A stretch of DNA of 19,945 bases from a virus (lineage: Duplodnaviria > Heunggongvirae > Uroviricota > Caudoviricetes). The notes under the pieces were generated by a model. That model was not told the origin of the DNA. It did no database searches and saw nothing but the letters and a program-made list of their open reading frames with translations. The first letter of the stretch is position 1. Every line of letters begins with the position of its first letter. Below are positions 175-16,637 of this stretch, in pieces. The translations under genes were made by a program, and so were the position numbers. Where the stretch lies: the IMG/VR virus record IMGVR_UViG_2627853844_000002. One strand, 5' to 3'.

Positions 175-227
175 GGGCGGCAGAGCAGTCACGGAGTAAA
201 ACTGATACCGCCAAACGTCACCAGAAA
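175..227 (-). ncRNA. dicF: DicF small RNA (53 nt; antisense regulator of ftsZ and other targets)
   Basis: Reverse complement of 175-227 reads UUUCUGGUGACGUUUGGCGGUAUCAGUUUUACUCCGUGACUGCUCUGCCGCCC, matching the DicF sequence as I recall it, followed by a U-run terminator tail (plus-strand A-run 171-174). Confidence 0.85.
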
Positions 228-2285: not shown

Positions 2286-2435
2286 GTGGATAATGCCCGT
2301 ATTGATTTACGCTCAAAATACTATGTTAAACCTAAAGCTGACCATCCCTGGCTTACGCGCCGAACGCAAAGTCATCAGCAAGTTAAGCCCCCGAAGTTAC
2401 CTAAAAAGAAGCCTGATCCCGATAAAAAAGATTGA
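2286..2435 (+). CDS. Small lysine/proline-rich ORF (49 aa, GTG start), possibly the ydfW/intK remnant; an alternative-frame ORF 2260..2487 also exists
   Basis: Manual translation VDNARIDLRSKYYVKPKADHPWLTRRTQSHQQVKPPKLPKKKPDPDKKD; the length matches my recollection of YdfW, but the frame assignment is uncertain. Confidence 0.3.
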   Translation: MDNARIDLRSKYYVKPKADHPWLTRRTQSHQQVKPPKLPKKKPDPDKKD

Positions 2436-2832
2436 AACCAAGATCGATTCGGTTGAGTGCATATCCATTCATAGGGTAGATTCTTAAGTCGCGTTTCTGG
2501 TGTTCATTTTCGGGTGGTTTGTTACTTGTTTTACCGGGGATATGCCAGAAACGCGCTGAGTCAGTCTGGGCGGTGCGCGTAATGAGGCGTTATGGTAAAT
2601 AGCCTATGCTAATGTCCGCTAAGAGCAAGAAGCGGAAGTTGGCAGTTTTGTGGACTGTCCCCACAAAAGTGACTACAGAAATAGTTGCAATTCATAATTG
2701 ATCATGGGTTGTCAGTTAAACTCGTGGCGATTTAAATAGACTAATTGGGAGTGCGTCCATTACTTATATCTTGTAATGTTAACTATCAGAAATGATACAA
2801 AGATAATATGTCTTTAAAGAAAAGGCTGATGG

Positions 2833-2859
2833 CGAAAAGTGGCCCGATGAGGGCCACAA
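2833..2859 (-). terminator. Rho-independent terminator downstream of flxA
   Basis: Inverted repeat GTGGCCC-gatga-GGGCCAC (2840-2859) followed on the minus strand by a U-rich run (CUUUUC), immediately 3' of the flxA stop. Confidence 0.55.
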
Positions 2860-2871
2860 TACGGCTGTCAC

Positions 2872-3204
2872 TTAGACGTAAATATCAATGGTGCCAGCGG
2901 TATTTGTATCGTCTTTTTTCTCTTCTTTTTTATCAGGCTGAACTGTCGCGTCTTCATTCTTTTTCTCTGCCTGCTGCCTTAACAACTGCTCCAGTTGAGC
3001 CCAGAGGCTTTCAATTTGCTTCTGTACCAATGCAGCCATTTCTTTTTTCTGCTGTGTCGTCATCCCCTCTTCCGATGAGATTTTCCCAAGCTTTTCAGTC
3101 AGCACCTGAATTTGTCTTGTGATTTTGGCTATTTCTGATGTTCCTTCCGGGGCGGAGTTGTTTGAAATAACGGTTGAGGTATTTCCCTGAATTGTGACAG
3201 ACAT
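2872..3204 (-). CDS. flxA: FlxA, FliA (sigma-28)-regulated protein (110 aa)
   Basis: ORF translation MSVTIQGNTSTVISNNSAPEGTSEIAKITRQIQVLTEKLGK...; sigma-28 promoter directly upstream. Confidence 0.85.
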   Translation of the reverse strand: MSVTIQGNTSTVISNNSAPEGTSEIAKITRQIQVLTEKLGKISSEEGMTTQQKKEMAALVQKQIESLWAQLEQLLRQQAEKKNEDATVQPDKKEEKKDDTNTAGTIDIYV

Positions 3205-3225
3205 AGATTTCTCCTTTTAAAAAAG

Positions 3226-3252
3226 CACTATCGGCATGCACAAAAAAATCTT
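3226..3252 (-). promoter_or_regulatory. Sigma-28 (FliA) class 3 promoter for flxA
   Basis: Minus strand reads TAAAGATT-N11-GCCGATAG, against the sigma-28 consensus TAAAGTTT-N11-GCCGATAA, about 25 nt upstream of the flxA ATG. Confidence 0.7.
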
Positions 3253-3406
3253 TAATCGTATTTCTTGTGTCATTAATTGTTTGATGTTCAGATTGTTTTC
3301 CTCGCGGGCTGGCGCGCCTCAGAAAGTAAAGCTTGTTGACAGGGGTAAACGTTCGGCAATAATTTTCTGCCGCATGCGGGTGTTGCATAAAACGTGTTAC
3401 GTTCCT

Positions 3407-3712
3407 TTATCGACAGGTCAGGTCACCGCTCACCCGCCGACGAGAAAGCAACACTGACATGCTAAAGCAAAAAATAGATGAATAAGTTGAGTTGTGCATA
3501 TGTAGCCTGACCGTCACAAAGTATATGGTGTCTGTACCAGTAAGATGATGGCCGGACTCTTTAAAAACGAGCTGACCTGCACAATACAGGATGGACTTAG
3601 CAATGGCTGCTCCTGGCACAAAGCGGACAGTGATCACCGTTCTTACGACTACTTTCTGACTTCCTTCGTGACTTGCCCTAAGCATGTTGTAGTGCGATAC
3701 TTGTAATGACAT
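3407..3712 (-). CDS. ydfV: Hypothetical ORF (ydfV-like, 101 aa); doubtful coding status, overlaps the relB promoter/operator
   Basis: ORF track only; length matches the annotated K-12 ydfV as I recall; no recognisable domain. Confidence 0.3.
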   Translation of the reverse strand: MSLQVSHYNMLRASHEGSQKVVVRTVITVRFVPGAAIAKSILYCAGQLVFKESGHHLTGTDTIYFVTVRLHMHNSTYSSIFCFSMSVLLSRRRVSGDLTCR

Positions 3713-3725
3713 TTGTAATTACAAG
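3700..3725 (+). promoter_or_regulatory. relBE operator relO (RelB/RelE autoregulation site) within the relB promoter
   Basis: CTTGTAATGACATTTGTAATTACAAG: TTGTAAT repeated at 3701-3707 and 3713-3719 with inverted ATTACAA at 3718-3724, 12 nt upstream of the relB start. Confidence 0.65.
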
Positions 3726-3736
3726 AGGTGTAAGAC

Positions 3737-3976
3737 ATGGGTAGCATTAACCTGCGTATTGACGATGAACTTAAAGCGCGTTCTTACGCCGCGCTTGAAA
3801 AAATGGGTGTAACTCCTTCTGAAGCGCTTCGTCTCATGCTCGAGTATATCGCTGACAATGAACGCTTGCCGTTCAAACAGACACTCCTGAGTGATGAAGA
3901 TGCTGAACTTGTGGAGATAGTGAAAGAACGGCTTCGTAATCCTAAGCCAGTACGTGTGACGCTGGATGAACTCTGA
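3737..3976 (+). CDS. relB: RelB antitoxin (79 aa)
   Basis: ORF translation MGSINLRIDDELKARSYAALEKMGVTPSEALRLMLEYIADNERLPFKQTLL...; ATGA overlap with relE. Confidence 0.95.
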   Translation: MGSINLRIDDELKARSYAALEKMGVTPSEALRLMLEYIADNERLPFKQTLLSDEDAELVEIVKERLRNPKPVRVTLDEL

Positions 3977-4263
3977 TGGCGTATTTTCTGGATTTTGACG
4001 AGCGGGCACTAAAGGAATGGCGAAAGCTGGGCTCGACGGTACGTGAACAGTTGAAAAAGAAGCTGGTTGAAGTACTTGAGTCACCCCGGATTGAAGCAAA
4101 CAAGCTCCGTGGTATGCCTGATTGTTACAAGATTAAGCTCCGGTCTTCAGGCTATCGCCTTGTATACCAGGTTATAGACGAGAAAGTTGTCGTTTTCGTG
4201 ATTTCTGTTGGGAAAAGAGAACGCTCGGAAGTATATAGCGAGGCGGTCAAACGCATTCTCTGA
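3976..4263 (+). CDS. relE: RelE mRNA-interferase toxin (95 aa)
   Basis: ORF translation MAYFLDFDERALKEWRKLGSTVREQLKKKLVEVLESPRIEANKLRGMPDCYKIKLRSSGYRLVYQV... Confidence 0.95.
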   Translation: MAYFLDFDERALKEWRKLGSTVREQLKKKLVEVLESPRIEANKLRGMPDCYKIKLRSSGYRLVYQVIDEKVVVFVISVGKRERSEVYSEAVKRIL

Positions 4264-4334
4264 ACCAAAGCATGACATCTCTGTTTCGCACCGAAGGTGA
4301 CACTTCTGCTTTGCGTTGACAGGAGAAGCAGGCT

Positions 4335-4490
4335 ATGAAGCAGCAAAAGGCGATGTTAATCGCCCTGATCGTCATCTGTTTAACCGTCATAGTGACGGCA
4401 CTGGTAACGAGGAAAGACCTCTGCGAGGTACGAATCCGAACCGGCCAGACGGAGGTCGCTGTCTTCACAGCTTACGAACCTGAGGAGTAA
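4335..4490 (+). CDS. hokD: HokD (RelF) Hok-family membrane toxin (51 aa)
   Basis: Manual translation MKQQKAMLIALIVICLTVIVTALVTRKDLCEVRIRTGQTEVAVFTAYEPEE; third gene of the relBE-hokD operon; under 60 aa so absent from the ORF track. Confidence 0.9.
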   Translation: MKQQKAMLIALIVICLTVIVTALVTRKDLCEVRIRTGQTEVAVFTAYEPEE

Positions 4491-4558
4491 GAGACCCGGC
4501 GGGGGAGAAATCCCTCGCCACCTCTGATGTGGCAGGCATCCTCAACGCACCCGCACTT

Positions 4559-7754: not shown

Positions 7755-8054
7755 AAAAATTCCTTAATACTGATAACTTGGCGCACTATACACACGTTCC
7801 TGAAGAAAGCTATAGTTTTTTGATGGGGTTGAAGATGGCTGGATGTCTAAAATAAACATTGCTTCATATGTTCAACTATGCGTTAATGATTGCGTCGGTT
7901 TGAAGAACAGACGATATACGAAGTAGTTTACTAAAGCAGTTCTCATTTCAGGTGTTATTCACTTATTCCTTCTTTGAGTCTCTCCAATTAAGTACGAAGT
8001 CGTTTCTGTTATGCAAACCATTTATGCCGAAAGGCTCAAGTTAAGGAATGTAGA

Positions 8055-8270
8055 ATGTCAAATAAAATGACTGGTTTAGTAAAATGGTTTAACGCTGATA
8101 AAGGTTTCGGCTTTATTTCTCCTGTTGATGGTAGTAAAGATGTGTTTGTGCATTTTTCTGCGATTCAGAATGATAATTATCGAACCTTATTTGAAGGTCA
8201 AAAGGTTACCTTCTCTATAGAGAGTGGTGCTAAAGGTCCTGCAGCAGCAAATGTCATCATTACTGATTAA
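8055..8270 (+). CDS. cspB: Cold-shock protein CspB (71 aa)
   Basis: ORF translation [71 protein letters not shown]. Confidence 0.95.
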
Positions 8271-8381
8271 AATTCATCGCTCGTCTGTATACGATAACGA
8301 AGAAGGCTGATGCCTGAGTAGAGATACGGACAGAGTAGTGAATATTGGATCTCTTTAATAAAAAGTAAGGAGGTCCAATAC

Positions 8382-10579: not shown

Positions 10580-10941
10580 GGTAATATTAAATCGGAACAT
10601 TTACATCGCGGAATGTAAAATTTAAATAAAAAGGACTCTTCCATGAGCCAAAATTCCTGAAATCTTAAGGGTAAGATAAAAGGTCTTAATCAGAATGACA
10701 CGTTTTATTAATAAATAAAGCTATTCTTTCATTGCTGTGTTTTTCTTTACAAAAGTAATCCTTGCTATGGGTGGTTAATCATGCGTTAATGGTGTTCTGG
10801 TTTGTTACAAATTTATCTGAAGCAGTCATTGTTATAATTTTATTATTTGTACCTCTTGAGATTTCCTTGTTGGTTTTTCTCTCTGATATTTTTTTTCGGA
10901 CCATTCTGCCCAAGGGCTAATTTCTTCAAAAGGTAATAATT

Positions 10942-11154
10942 ATGTCTAACAAAATGACTGGTTTAGTGAAATGGTTTAACCCTGAAAAAGGTTTTGGTTT
11001 CATCACGCCGAAAGATGGCAGCAAAGATGTGTTTGTCCATTTCTCAGCAATTCAGAGCAACGATTTCAAAACATTAACTGAGAATCAGGAAGTTGAATTT
11101 GGTATTGAGAACGGACCTAAAGGTCCTGCCGCTGTTCATGTAGTGGCGCTTTGA
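10942..11154 (+). CDS. cspI: Cold-shock protein CspI (70 aa)
   Basis: ORF translation [70 protein letters not shown]. Confidence 0.95.
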
Positions 11155-11353
11155 GGTAGACAATATTACAAACCATATTCACTTTAGATGCCCGTGTTGT
11201 CATGGTTCCCAGTATAGAACATCATCTTTTGATGTTTCTGACATGAATCCTTTCGGGGCAAAATGTATCTTTTGTAAATCAATGATGATTACATTTGATA
11301 ATATTTCACAATACTTAAATGCCAGCCGTCTGTCGTTGGATTTAAAAAAGTGA
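11144..11353 (+). pseudogene. Zinc-ribbon-like reading frame (paralog of the 8634..8804 ORF) lacking any canonical in-frame start before its first Cys cluster; only the C-terminal 36 codons (ATG 11243) are conventionally translatable
   Basis: Frame +1 relative to cspI reads ...FRCPCCHGSQYRTSSFDVSDMNPFGAKCIFCKSMMITFDNISQYLNASRLSLDLKK*; an ATG at 11188 is out of frame by one nucleotide (ATG CCC GTG ... stops after 9 codons). Confidence 0.35.
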
Positions 11354-11386: not shown

Positions 11387-11499
11387 GTGTCTATTCGATG
11401 GATACTCACATACTACGGTAACATCATGAAAAAAATCATAGTTTTTTTAACTCTGAACCAGCAGTGGTAGTGCCAGCGATGACTGGAGTTAACACCATC

Positions 11500-11655
11500 A
11501 TGCGTGAATATCCAAATGGCGAAAAAACACACCTTACTGTAATGGCCGCAGGGTTTCCATCTCTGACCGGAGATCATAAAGTCATTTATGTAGCCGCGGA
11601 TCGACATGTTACTTCAGAAGAAATTCTGGAAGCAGCAATAAGGCTCTTGAGTTGA
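11500..11655 (+). CDS. ynfN: Small Qin prophage protein YnfN (51 aa)
   Basis: Internal ATG of ORF 11464..11655: MREYPNGEKTHLTVMAAGFPSLTGDHKVIYVAADRHVTSEEILEAAIRLLS; length matches recollection. Confidence 0.6.
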   Translation: MREYPNGEKTHLTVMAAGFPSLTGDHKVIYVAADRHVTSEEILEAAIRLLS

Positions 11656-11826: not shown

Positions 11827-12000
11827 ATGAATATTGAAAACTTAAAAACAAAAGCAGAAGCAGATATTTCTGAATATATAACAAAAAAAATTATTGAACT
11901 TAAGAAAAAGACCGGGAAAGAAGTTACCAGTATTCAGTTTACCGCACGGGAAAAAATGACGGGTCTTGAAAGCTATGATGTCAAGATTAATTTAATCTGA
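11827..12000 (+). CDS. gnsB: GnsB (57 aa), Gns-family small protein
   Basis: Manual translation MNIENLKTKAEADISEYITKKIIELKKKTGKEVTSIQFTAREKMTGLESYDVKINLI; a weak hairpin with a U-run follows at about 12030-12055. Confidence 0.85.
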   Translation: MNIENLKTKAEADISEYITKKIIELKKKTGKEVTSIQFTAREKMTGLESYDVKINLI

Positions 12001-12151
12001 TGTATTCAATAATAAAATTTATCCATAAACCTCGTTTTTACGGGGTTTTGTTATATTTGAATGGTTCCGAATATCTAAATCACAATTGTTGATGGTTTTT
12101 ATTAAACCAATGCAGTCCGGCTCAGGAGTGAGAGAAGCCGGACGTTATGGT

Positions 12152-12562
12152 TTAGCGTGGTAAGATCTGTGTAGTTTTCTGGATGCTTTCAGTAAATAGT
12201 AATGAATTATCAAAGGTATAGTAATATCTTTTTTGTTCGTGGATATTTGTAACCCACCGAAAAACTCCTGCTTTAGCAAGGTTTCTTCTGTATTCCTGAA
12301 ATGTGATCTCTCTGGATTTCAGCTTATTAGAGGTCGTTTCTATAAGATGCCTATCCTTTGAAAATTTGACAGACACAATGTTTTTTAGGCCCTTTAATAA
12401 CACTGTATTATCATTTTTTAATACAATATGAACATTCTCTGTGGCTAAATAGTAAATGTAATGTGAGACATTGTGACGTTTTAGCTCAGAATAAAACCAT
12501 TGATAGTTTAAATCGTTTCGAACTTTATCAAATATTTGTTTAAAAATGACTACCTGATCCAT
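12152..12562 (-). CDS. ydfO: YdfO, DUF1398-family prophage protein (136 aa)
   Basis: ORF translation [54 protein letters not shown]...; GGAAGG SD 7 nt upstream of ATG 12562; an IS10 end lies 37 bp upstream. Confidence 0.8.
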
Positions 12563-12589
12563 AGATAAACCTTCCATGTGATATGAGGG

Positions 12590-12598
12590 GGCGTAGTC
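12590..12598. repeat. IS10 target-site duplication, left copy (GGCGTAGTC)
   Basis: Identical 9-mer directly abuts both IS10 termini (12590-12598 and 13928-13936). Confidence 0.9.
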
Positions 12599-12644
12599 CT
12601 GATGAATCCCCTAATGATTTTGGTAAAAATCATTAAGTTAAGGT

Positions 12645-12713
12645 GGATACACATCTTGTCATATGATCAAATGGTTTCGCGAAAAATCAATAATCAGACA
12701 ACAAGATGTGCGA
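12645..12713 (-). ncRNA. IS10 antisense RNA-OUT (from pOUT; represses transposase translation); coordinates approximate
   Basis: Placed from established IS10 organisation (RNA-OUT covering roughly IS10 nt 47-115, overlapping the transposase start at nt 108); not derived independently from the sequence. Confidence 0.5.
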
Positions 12714-13914
12714 ACTCGATATTTTACACGACTCTCTTTACCAATTCTGCCCCGAATTACACTTAAAACGACTCAACAGCTTAACGTTGGCTTGCCACGC
12801 ATTACTTGACTGTAAAACTCTCACTCTTACCGAACTTGGCCGTAACCTGCCAACCAAAGCGAGAACAAAACATAACATCAAACGAATCGACCGATTGTTA
12901 GGTAATCGTCACCTCCACAAAGAGCGACTCGCTGTATACCGTTGGCATGCTAGCTTTATCTGTTCGGGCAATACGATGCCCATTGTACTTGTTGACTGGT
13001 CTGATATTCGTGAGCAAAAACGACTTATGGTATTGCGAGCTTCAGTCGCACTACACGGTCGTTCTGTTACTCTTTATGAGAAAGCGTTCCCGCTTTCAGA
13101 GCAATGTTCAAAGAAAGCTCATGACCAATTTCTAGCCGACCTTGCGAGCATTCTACCGAGTAACACCACACCGCTCATTGTCAGTGATGCTGGCTTTAAA
13201 GTGCCATGGTATAAATCCGTTGAGAAGCTGGGTTGGTACTGGTTAAGTCGAGTAAGAGGAAAAGTACAATATGCAGACCTAGGAGCGGAAAACTGGAAAC
13301 CTATCAGCAACTTACATGATATGTCATCTAGTCACTCAAAGACTTTAGGCTATAAGAGGCTGACTAAAAGCAATCCAATCTCATGCCAAATTCTATTGTA
13401 TAAATCTCGCTCTAAAGGCCGAAAAAATCAGCGCTCGACACGGACTCATTGTCACCACCCGTCACCTAAAATCTACTCAGCGTCGGCAAAGGAGCCATGG
13501 GTTCTAGCAACTAACTTACCTGTTGAAATTCGAACACCCAAACAACTTGTTAATATCTATTCGAAGCGAATGCAGATTGAAGAAACCTTCCGAGACTTGA
13601 AAAGTCCTGCCTACGGACTAGGCCTACGCCATAGCCGAACGAGCAGCTCAGAGCGTTTTGATATCATGCTGCTAATCGCCCTGATGCTTCAACTAACATG
13701 TTGGCTTGCGGGCGTTCATGCTCAGAAACAAGGTTGGGACAAGCACTTCCAGGCTAACACAGTCAGAAATCGAAACGTACTCTCAACAGTTCGCTTAGGC
13801 ATGGAAGTTTTGCGGCATTCTGGCTACACAATAACAAGGGAAGACTTACTCGTGGCTGCAACCCTACTAGCTCAAAATTTATTCACACATGGTTACGCTT
13901 TGGGGAAATTATGA
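12706..13914 (+). CDS. IS10 transposase (402 aa)
   Basis: ORF translation MCELDILHDSLYQFCPELHLKRLNSLTLACHALLDCKTLTLTELGRNLPTKARTKHNIKRIDRLL... recognised as IS10 transposase; start at IS10 nt 108. Confidence 0.95.
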   Translation: MCELDILHDSLYQFCPELHLKRLNSLTLACHALLDCKTLTLTELGRNLPTKARTKHNIKRIDRLLGNRHLHKERLAVYRWHASFICSGNTMPIVLVDWSDIREQKRLMVLRASVALHGRSVTLYEKAFPLSEQCSKKAHDQFLADLASILPSNTTPLIVSDAGFKVPWYKSVEKLGWYWLSRVRGKVQYADLGAENWKPISNLHDMSSSHSKTLGYKRLTKSNPISCQILLYKSRSKGRKNQRSTRTHCHHPSPKIYSASAKEPWVLATNLPVEIRTPKQLVNIYSKRMQIEETFRDLKSPAYGLGLRHSRTSSSERFDIMLLIALMLQLTCWLAGVHAQKQGWDKHFQANTVRNRNVLSTVRLGMEVLRHSGYTITREDLLVAATLLAQNLFTHGYALGKL

Positions 13915-13927
13915 GGGGATCTCTCAG

Positions 13928-13936
13928 GGCGTAGTC
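13928..13936. repeat. IS10 target-site duplication, right copy (GGCGTAGTC)
   Basis: Same 9-mer as 12590-12598, directly after the IS10 inside end. Confidence 0.9.
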
Positions 13937-13957
13937 TGCACGATTATCTAAATTGCT

Positions 13958-14191
13958 TCAATCTGGTCTGACCTGTTTTCTGAGCAATTCAGTAATGTCA
14001 CTCTTTTCTTTGTTTGCTTCAGAAGAAACTCTTTTTTCTGAGCACAGTCTCCGGCGGCAGGCTTCAATGACCCAGGCTGAGAAATTCCCGGACCCTTTTT
14101 GCTCAAGAGCGATGTTAATTTGTTCAATCATTTGGTTAGGAAAGCGGATGTTGCGGGTTGTTGTTCTGCGGGTTCTGTTCTTCGTTGACAT
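13958..14191 (-). CDS. ynfO: YnfO, uncharacterised prophage protein (77 aa)
   Basis: ORF translation MSTKNRTRRTTTRNIRFPNQMIEQINIALEQKGSGNFSAWVIEACRRRLCSEKRVSSEANKEKSDITELLRKQVRPD; stop lies 22 bp from the IS10 target duplication. Confidence 0.7.
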   Translation of the reverse strand: MSTKNRTRRTTTRNIRFPNQMIEQINIALEQKGSGNFSAWVIEACRRRLCSEKRVSSEANKEKSDITELLRKQVRPD

Positions 14192-14329
14192 GAGGTTGCC
14201 CCGTATTCAGTGTCGCTGATTTGTATTGTCTGAAGTTGTTTTTACGTTAAGTTGATGCAGATCAATTAATACGATACCTGCGTCATAATTGATTATTTGA
14301 CGTGGTTTGATGGCCTCCACGCACGTTGT

Positions 14330-14579
14330 GATATGTAGATGATAATCATTATCACTTTACGGGTCCTTTCCGGTGATCCGACAGGTTACGGGGCGGCGAC
14401 CTCGCGGGTTTTCGCTATTTATGAAAATTTTCCGGTTTAAGGCATTTCCGTTCTTCTTCGTCGTAACTTAATGTTTTTATTTAAAATACCCCCTGAAAAG
14501 AAAGGAAACGACAGGTGCTGAAAACGAGCTTTTGGGCCTCTGTCGTTTCCTTTCTCTGTTTTTGGCCGTGGAATGAACA
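14330..14579 (+). other. Lambda-type cohesive-end site: cosQ / cosN (GGGCGGCGACCT at 14391-14402) / cosB
   Basis: CGCACGTTGTGATATGTAGATGATAATCATTATCACTTTACGGGTCCTTTCCGGTGATCCGACAGGTTACG followed by GGGCGGCGACCTCGCGGGTTTTCGCTATTTATGAAAATTTTCCGG... matches the lambda right-end/left-end junction as I recall it, with a few substitutions in cosB. Confidence 0.85.
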
Positions 14580-15149
14580 ATGGAAGTCAACAAAAAGCAG
14601 CTGGCTGACATTTTCGGTGCGAGTATCCGTACCATTCAGAACTGGCAGGAACAGGGAATGCCCGTTCTGCGAGGCGGTGGCAAGGGTAATGAGGTGCTTT
14701 ATGACTCTGCCGCCGTTATAAGATGGTATGCCGAAAGGGATGCTGAAATTGAGAACGAAAAGCTGCGCCGGGAAGTTGAAGAACTGCGGCAGGCCAGCGA
14801 GACAGATCTCCAGCCAGGGACTATTGAGTACGAACGCCATCGACTTACGCGTGCGCAGGCCGACGCACAGGAGCTGAAAAATGCCAGAGACTCCGCTGAA
14901 GTGGTGGAAACCGCATTCTGTACTTTCGTGCTGTCGCGGATCGCAGGTGAAATTGCCAGTATTCTCGACGGGATCCCCCTGTCGGTGCAGCGGCGTTTTC
15001 CGGAACTGGAAAACCGACATGTTGATTTCCTGAAACGGGATATCATCAAAGCCATGAACAAAGCAGCCGCGCTGGATGAACTGATACCGGGGTTGCTGAG
15101 TGAATATAACCGCGCTGACAGACAATACGCAGGGGGCAGCAGGTCTTGA
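14580..15149 (+). CDS. nohA: Terminase small subunit Nu1 homolog, C-terminally altered by a deletion fusion (189 aa)
   Basis: ORF translation [46 protein letters not shown]... matches lambda Nu1 as recalled up to ...LLSEY, then diverges into [13 protein letters not shown] where the sequence joins stf. Confidence 0.9.
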
Positions 15150-16062: not shown

Positions 16063-16637
16063 TGGCATTCAGAATGAGTGAACAACCACGGACCATAAAA
16101 ATTTATAATCTGCTGGCCGGAACTAATGAATTTATTGGTGAAGGTGATGCATATATTCCGCCTCATACAGGTCTGCCAGCAAACAGTACCGATATTGCAC
16201 CGCCAGATATTCCGGCTGGCTTCGTGGCTGTTTTCAACAGTGATGAGTCATCGTGGCATCTCGTTGAAGATCATCGGGGTAAAACGGTTTATGACGTGGC
16301 TTCCGGCGACGCGTTATTTATTTCTGAACTCGGTCCGTTACCGGAAAATGTTACCTGGTTATCGCCGGAAGGGGAGTTTCAGAAGTGGAACGGCACAGCC
16401 TGGGTGAAGGATACGGAAGCAGAAAAACTGTTCCGGATCCGGGAGGCGGAAGAAACAAAAAACAACCTGATGCAGGTAGCCAGTGAGCATATTGCGCCGC
16501 TTCAGGATGCTGCAGATCTGGAAATTGCAACGGAGGAAGAAATCTCGTTGCTGGAAGCATGGAAAAAGTATCGGGTATTGCTGAACCGTGTTGATACGTC
16601 AACTGCACAGGATATTGAATGGCCAGCACTGCCGTAG
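16062..16637 (+). CDS. tfaQ: Tail-fibre assembly protein (191 aa)
   Basis: ORF translation [78 protein letters not shown]...; start overlaps the stf stop. Confidence 0.85.

Follow-up and report, generated by a model that had tools for sequence, protein, structure and literature searches.

An IS10 insertion in the Qin prophage of Escherichia coli K-12 ER2796 probably separates ydfO from its upstream control and places it under read-out from pOUT

From where is ydfO transcribed, when a complete insertion element stands between this gene and its upstream neighbour? The question is raised by a stretch of DNA of 19,945 nucleotides (IMG/VR record IMGVR_UViG_2627853844_000002; in the following "the window"). 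Around the junction of the element with ydfO, the sequence matches the chromosome of Escherichia coli K-12 ER2796 (NZ_CP009644.1), a DNA-methyltransferase-deficient strain from New England Biolabs, at 100% identity and that of ER3413 at 98.8%. According to the RefSeq annotation, the window is the Qin cryptic prophage of ER2796. In this region, gnsB is followed by ydfO on the minus strand, a gene on the plus strand whose product is named as an IS4-like element ISVsa5 family transposase, ynfO on the minus strand, and finally nohA.

Several other features of the prophage were recorded. Matches to Rfam comprised the antisense RNA DicF at positions 175–226 (minus strand, 76.7 bits), which is expected for a Qin prophage, two cspA-type thermoregulators at 7894–8286 and 10796–11181 (both plus strand), the second of which covers the 5' leader of cspI, a gene which RefSeq places at 10942–11154, and a full-length match to IS009 at 16405–16603 (plus strand, 220.9 bits) within the 3' half of tfaQ. 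In ER2796 and ER3413, RefSeq treats ynfN (11426–11655, plus strand) as a pseudogene with a frameshift; MG1655 possesses a short intact ynfN.

The ydfO gene itself is intact. Its coding sequence (12152–12562, minus strand) appears both in the list of open reading frames and in the annotation of ER2796; the protein of 136 amino acids with the start codon at 12562 is 100% identical to YdfO of MG1655 and belongs to DUF1398 (PF07166, E = 1.5e-46). A Shine-Dalgarno-like GGAAGG (12570–12575, minus strand), as read from the sequence, is kept 7 nt 5' of the annotated ATG. A second in-frame ATG is located 5 codons further upstream at 12577 (12575–12577, minus strand; MEGLS-MDQ...) and is also still present, 21 nt from the end of the element, without an obvious Shine-Dalgarno sequence of its own. 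It was the start in an older annotation of 141 amino acids, which was used for the NMR structure PDB 2HH8.

The inserted element (12599–13927, plus strand) is a complete IS10 of the IS10-Right type with a length of 1329 bp, the outside end being at 12599 and the inside end at 13927. Its termini are imperfect inverted repeats, CTGATGAATCCCC at the outside end and CTGAGAGATCCCC at the inside end, and the last bases up to position 13927 are GGGGATCTCTCAG. The transposase gene (12706–13914, plus strand; 402 amino acids), which RefSeq names as an IS4-like element ISVsa5 family transposase, starts at IS10 nucleotide 108 and contains a DDE_Tnp_1 domain (PF01609, E = 1.5e-24). On both sides the element is bordered by the 9-bp target-site duplication GGCGTAGTC, the left copy at 12590–12598 and the right copy, a perfect direct repeat of it, at 13928–13936. 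MG1655 has this 9-mer once, in an unbroken ynfO-ydfO spacer of 57 bp without IS10, and thus represents the empty site, from which a simple transposition in ER2796 can be deduced. The duplicated sequence fits the relaxed target consensus of IS10, NRCNNNGYN (quoted in PMC4574204), and matches only 4 of the 6 positions of the classical consensus GCTNAGC.

Over its entire 1329 bp the element shows 100% identity to the gltS-side copy of IS10 in yedZ::Tn10 of ER2796; thus, its presence is not a matter of chance. From the map of Tn10, we take the gltS-side copy to be IS10-Right. A solo copy of IS10-Right would have moved from the Tn10 of the ER2796 lineage into the 57-bp spacer, with its outside end toward ydfO. 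The genome paper on ER2796 lists "IS10 in intergenic ynfO-ydfO", with 1338 bp, in its Table S1 and counts it as one of "two solo IS10 insertions"; it is silent on the expression of ydfO (PMC4444293).

An earlier note on this DNA had placed the outside end of IS10 37 bp upstream of the ydfO start, had described pOUT as sense for ydfO, and had put ynfO upstream on the same strand, separated from ydfO by the insertion. All of this was borne out. Base 1 of IS10 is at -37 from the annotated ATG (12562), with 36 bases intervening; ynfO (13958–14191, minus strand; DUF3950, 77 amino acids), which was originally 57 bp 5' of ydfO and on the same strand, is now 1338 bp further away. The assumption that both genes are natively co-transcribed was made from the 57-bp spacing. 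The orientation of pOUT follows from its product, the antisense RNA-OUT, which was recognized on the minus strand at 12644–12713 by the Rfam model RF00240 (98.8 bits, where the gathering score is 41, E = 6e-20, model positions 1–70 of 70). RNA-OUT overlaps the transposase start codon at 12706 on the strand opposite to the transposase gene, and its hairpin is a long stem-loop in the predicted fold. Since it is located on the strand of ydfO, RNA-OUT points outward from IS10 and to ydfO. Its 5' end at 12713, which is IS10 nucleotide 115 and corresponds to the start of pOUT, is also the position at which the region considered in the earlier note ended on the right.

A -10-like hexamer TAAAAT (12721–12726, minus strand; IS10 nucleotides 123–128) was read from the sequence 7 nt 5' of RNA-OUT. 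The assignment of TAAAAT as the -10 of pOUT goes back to the mapping by Simons et al. in 1983, as far as it is cited in PMC9330008 and PMC4574204. IS10 nucleotides 108–202, which include pOUT, show no differences among five aligned copies of IS10. A consensus promoter scan of positions 12000–14700 found no promoter, pOUT included, and a relaxed scan for pairs of hexamers missed pOUT too. The reason is that the -35 region of pOUT matches poorly; thus, negative results of these scans with respect to other promoters are weak evidence in either direction.

Between pOUT and ydfO, the path appears to be free. The start of pOUT at 12713 is 151 nt upstream of the ydfO ATG, and a read-through transcript would possess a leader of 151 nt, consisting of RNA-OUT (70 nt), the terminal part of IS10 (about 45 nt) and the native remnant (36 nt). 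A scan of the minus strand from 12713 to 12562 showed no intrinsic-terminator-like site; the only terminator-like match on the minus strand was at 12280–12267, within ydfO. The predicted fold has UAUCCACC after the RNA-OUT stem and AGGGGAUUCAUCAG after the hairpin of the terminal inverted repeat; neither sequence is a U tract. The statement holds for terminators of the intrinsic type, and Rho-dependent termination is possible. The arrangement on the sense strand is pOUT, followed by an intact ydfO with its ribosome-binding site.

The native remnant of 36 nt between the ydfO ATG and the end of IS10 (12563–12598, minus strand) is too short for a promoter plus a leader, and the relaxed scan showed no promoter-like pair of hexamers with its -10 in this remnant. 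A hybrid promoter at the junction of IS10 and the flanking DNA was considered and rejected, as no -35 in the IS10 terminus paired with a -10 in the flank in the same relaxed scan. Since too little native DNA is left for a promoter of ydfO, its transcription must either start in IS10 or cross IS10.

What would be lost by the insertion can be judged from the native control of ydfO. Induction of the gene by the ionic liquid [C2mim]Cl was 12-fold (array) and 117-fold (qPCR) in strain DH1. The native gene is thus strongly inducible, and a native control exists which could be lost. Genomic SELEX revealed a PdhR-box-like sequence, AACAGGTCAGACCAGAT, reported as lying between ynfO and ydfO (PMC7660256); in the window it was located at 13961–13977 (minus strand), at the extreme end of ynfO, and IS10 separates it from ydfO. 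When the empty site was reconstructed, the sole promoter-like pair under relaxed conditions was GTCAGA-18-GATAAT (window 13943–13977, minus strand). Its -35 overlaps the PdhR-box-like site, its predicted start falls on the duplicated 9-mer, and it is found on the same side of IS10 as ynfO. If this promoter were real, IS10 would sit at the native start site of ydfO, and the promoter would now fire into the inside end of IS10; this is speculative.

The explanation which accounts best for these data is that the insertion of IS10 severs ydfO from its upstream control and puts it under read-out from pOUT; we would give this a probability of about 0.75. The geometry of the insertion is a direct observation, and the activity of pOUT, the read-out and the polarity at this locus are deduced from published biology of IS10. 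The gene would be cut off from the ynfO transcript, from the candidate promoter at the end of ynfO and from the PdhR-box-like site. Transcripts from ynfO which enter IS10 would face 1.3 kb of untranslated antisense RNA and would probably stop; such polarity is plausible. Those transcripts from pOUT which do not end as the RNA-OUT of about 70 nt should leave the element into ydfO, since there is no terminator-like signal on the way and the ribosome-binding site of ydfO is intact. The 5' leader of the resulting mRNA would begin with RNA-OUT, followed by the terminus of IS10. A low to moderate constitutive expression of ydfO would be expected to replace its native stress-inducible control. The suggestion in the earlier note, that the insertion rewires ydfO rather than simply inactivating it, is compatible with the intact coding sequence and Shine-Dalgarno sequence, the absence of a terminator-like site from the path, a remnant of 36 nt that is too small for either a native or a hybrid promoter, and the literature on read-out from pOUT; with respect to the actual effect on expression, it is still an inference.

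The competitor which survives best is a plain polar insertion, in which effectively all pOUT transcripts would end at IS10 nucleotide 47 and ydfO would be promoterless and silent in ER2796. The main product of pOUT is indeed the RNA-OUT of about 70 nt, which is described as terminating at nucleotide 47 (PMC5006887), so that read-out can only be a fraction of the initiations at pOUT, perhaps a small one. Some pOUT transcripts run into neighbouring genes, with a read-out given as just about 10% of lacUV5 (Simons 1983, as summarized in the 2022 review PMC9330008), and the native upstream signals have been moved away by 1338 bp. However, no intrinsic-terminator-like signal follows RNA-OUT in the window, and the distance from the 3' end of RNA-OUT to the ydfO ATG is only 82 nt, much of it structured, which would offer little substrate for Rho. 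Moreover, activation of adjacent genes from the outside end of IS10 is documented (PMC9330008, PMC4574204, PMC11481808): the review names acrEF in Salmonella, as far as its summary goes, and the other two papers cite outward promoters at both ends of IS10 as explanation for the expression of adjacent genes. A silent ydfO would appear rather unlikely, although it deserves more consideration than the remaining alternatives.

Much less probable is that ydfO keeps an expression of its own, be it from a promoter in the 36 nt, from a hybrid promoter at the junction, or by transcription from ynfO through the whole of IS10. A weak outward promoter-like pair, TTAACT-16-AATCAT, is present in the last 45 bp of the outside end of IS10, and the scan for intrinsic-terminator-like sites was negative for the minus strand inside IS10. 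However, a start within the remnant, where no pair has its -10, would leave the Shine-Dalgarno sequence without a leader, and the sole candidate for a native promoter has remained with ynfO. The path from ynfO through IS10 produces 1.3 kb of untranslated antisense RNA, as the minus strand of the element contains no open stretch of more than 70 codons. Its C/G composition, used as a proxy for loading of Rho, showed a single modest C-rich stretch at about 13160–13310, which is not decisive. Insertions of Tn10 and IS10 are classically strongly polar.

The distribution of the insertion bears on a further possibility, namely that its site and orientation were selected. Among 5426 complete genomes of E. 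coli, the IS10 junction between ynfO and ydfO was found only in ER2796 and ER3413. A more sensitive search yielded two additional independent IS10 insertions upstream of ycgX, a paralogue of ydfO, both with pOUT toward the gene. In FDAARGOS_1370 (NZ_CP070098.1), a clinical isolate, IS10 occupies the position 5' of ycgX which is exactly homologous to that in ER2796, in the same orientation (locus extract 3146–4492); its duplication of 9 bp, TGCGTAGTG, has the core GCGTAGT in common with the site in ER2796. The copy in FDAARGOS_1370 has an IS10-Left-like outside end, and the region upstream of ycgX retains a remnant resembling the 3' end of ynfO. In EC4 (NZ_CP060974.1), a further IS10 turns its outside end to ycgX from about 0.3 kb upstream (locus extract about 2927–4255); the element lies in the 3' part of bluR, which is split into two pseudogene fragments. 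A synthetic junction of the ydfO side with the inside end of IS10, which was used as query for the opposite orientation, gave 0 matches among the 5426 genomes. Pattern scans with GCGTAGTNCTGAKRRATCCCC of genome contigs and metagenome contigs gave five matches, all of them chance hits in unrelated GC-rich DNA and none in IS10.

Upstream of ydfO-like genes, within about 0.3 kb of them, IS10 has inserted three times independently, each time with pOUT toward the gene, and overexpression of YdfO is cited, as far as the citation goes, as raising resistance to oxidative stress. This might suggest a recurrent adaptive activation of DUF1398 genes, with insertion and orientation at ydfO selected for turning on this gene. 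It is the least probable of the alternatives, since 3:0 does not reach significance (one-sided p = 0.125), the duplications at the shared site both agree with NRCNNNGYN (PMC4574204), the insertion in EC4 disrupts bluR, which perhaps is its relevant effect, ER2796 is a heavily bottlenecked laboratory strain so that neutral insertions fix easily, and two larger collections gave no further junctions. The sample is too small for selection to be inferred, and since both duplications conform to the relaxed consensus, target preference is the economical explanation for the site. A broader version, also quite unlikely, would regard GCGTAGT upstream of the DUF1398 paralogues ydfO and ycgX as a recurrent target of IS10, at which the orientation with pOUT toward the gene is favoured because activation of the gene is advantageous, for example by tolerance of oxidative stress; activation of DUF1398 by IS10 would in that case represent a minor path of adaptation taken repeatedly, and not a neutral accident of the laboratory.

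In ER3413, a derivative of ER2796, the copy at the ynfO-ydfO site is identical to the tetD-side IS10 (IS10-Left type). It shows 10 differences to the copy in ER2796 (nucleotides 24–903), of which three are in RNA-OUT (nucleotides 47, 83 and 107) and none in pOUT. The authors of the ER2796 genome paper call this change a probable gene conversion (PMC4444293, Table S1). The differences, in a copy located at 2300–3628 of the locus extract, would fit a long tract of gene conversion from another copy of IS10, in a mutator background deficient in dam.

The methylation status of these strains should also influence IS10. A Dam site overlaps the -10 of pIN (PMC5006887); in the window, this GATC is at 12665–12668 and is unmethylated in the dam-deficient ER2796 (PMC4444293). 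In a strain without Dam, pIN should thus be derepressed, and convergent transcription, or pairing of RNA-IN with the RNA-OUT leader, could lower or destabilize the read-through into ydfO. A second GATC is present at 13918–13921 in the inside end (GGGGATCTC). As both sites are unmethylated, expression of the transposase and activity of the inside end should be derepressed in all six copies of IS10. The promoters pIII and OUTIIp, whose reported location at IS10 nucleotides 1000–1230 (PMC11481808) corresponds to 13598–13828 of the window (plus strand), would leave the element at its inside end, in antisense direction to ynfO and toward the divergent region of ynfO and nohA.

In ER2796 and ER3413, ydfO is probably uncoupled from its native control. 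The element between ynfO and ydfO probably also sends out transcripts from its two ends, as sense RNA into ydfO and as antisense RNA into ynfO. As methylation-free hosts, the two strains are in wide use, and the practical relevance is limited. If the preferred explanation, read-out from pOUT into ydfO, is true, it would add one further example of a known property of IS10 and would raise no new question on this element or on gene regulation. The insertion is already catalogued and the mechanism has been known since 1982–83; it is an ordinary case.

The closest known systems are the classical examples of read-out from pOUT of Tn10 and IS10 (Ciampi, Schmid and Roth 1982; Simons et al. 1983; acrEF, Olliver et al. 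2005), which involve the same element and the same promoter. As these cases are cited, the outside end adjoins the 5' side of an intact gene and pOUT is on the sense strand, as for ydfO; in the classical cases, however, activation was selected and measured, whereas the case of ydfO, a prophage gene of DUF1398, is known from sequence. Vectors of the pSU8 family (Gonzalez-Prieto et al. 2015, PMC4574204) carry IS10 between Pcat and cat, some tens of bp away from the start codon; as for ydfO, the element is flanked by a duplication of 9 bp, and an outward promoter of IS10 was proposed to replace the native one. The sequenced junction in pSU8 is reported to be with nucleotide 1329, i.e., the inside end, and no particular promoter was named, whereas ydfO has the outside end, and thereby pOUT, next to it; moreover, the insertion in pSU8 arose under selection by chloramphenicol, unlike that at ydfO. 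A third counterpart is Pout of IS1999, another member of the IS4 family, together with blaOXA-48 or blaVEB-1 (PMC9330008). IS1999 is a different element, and the genes concerned are resistance genes with a clear selected phenotype, but the principle is shared with pOUT: a promoter for an antisense RNA doubles as an outward promoter.
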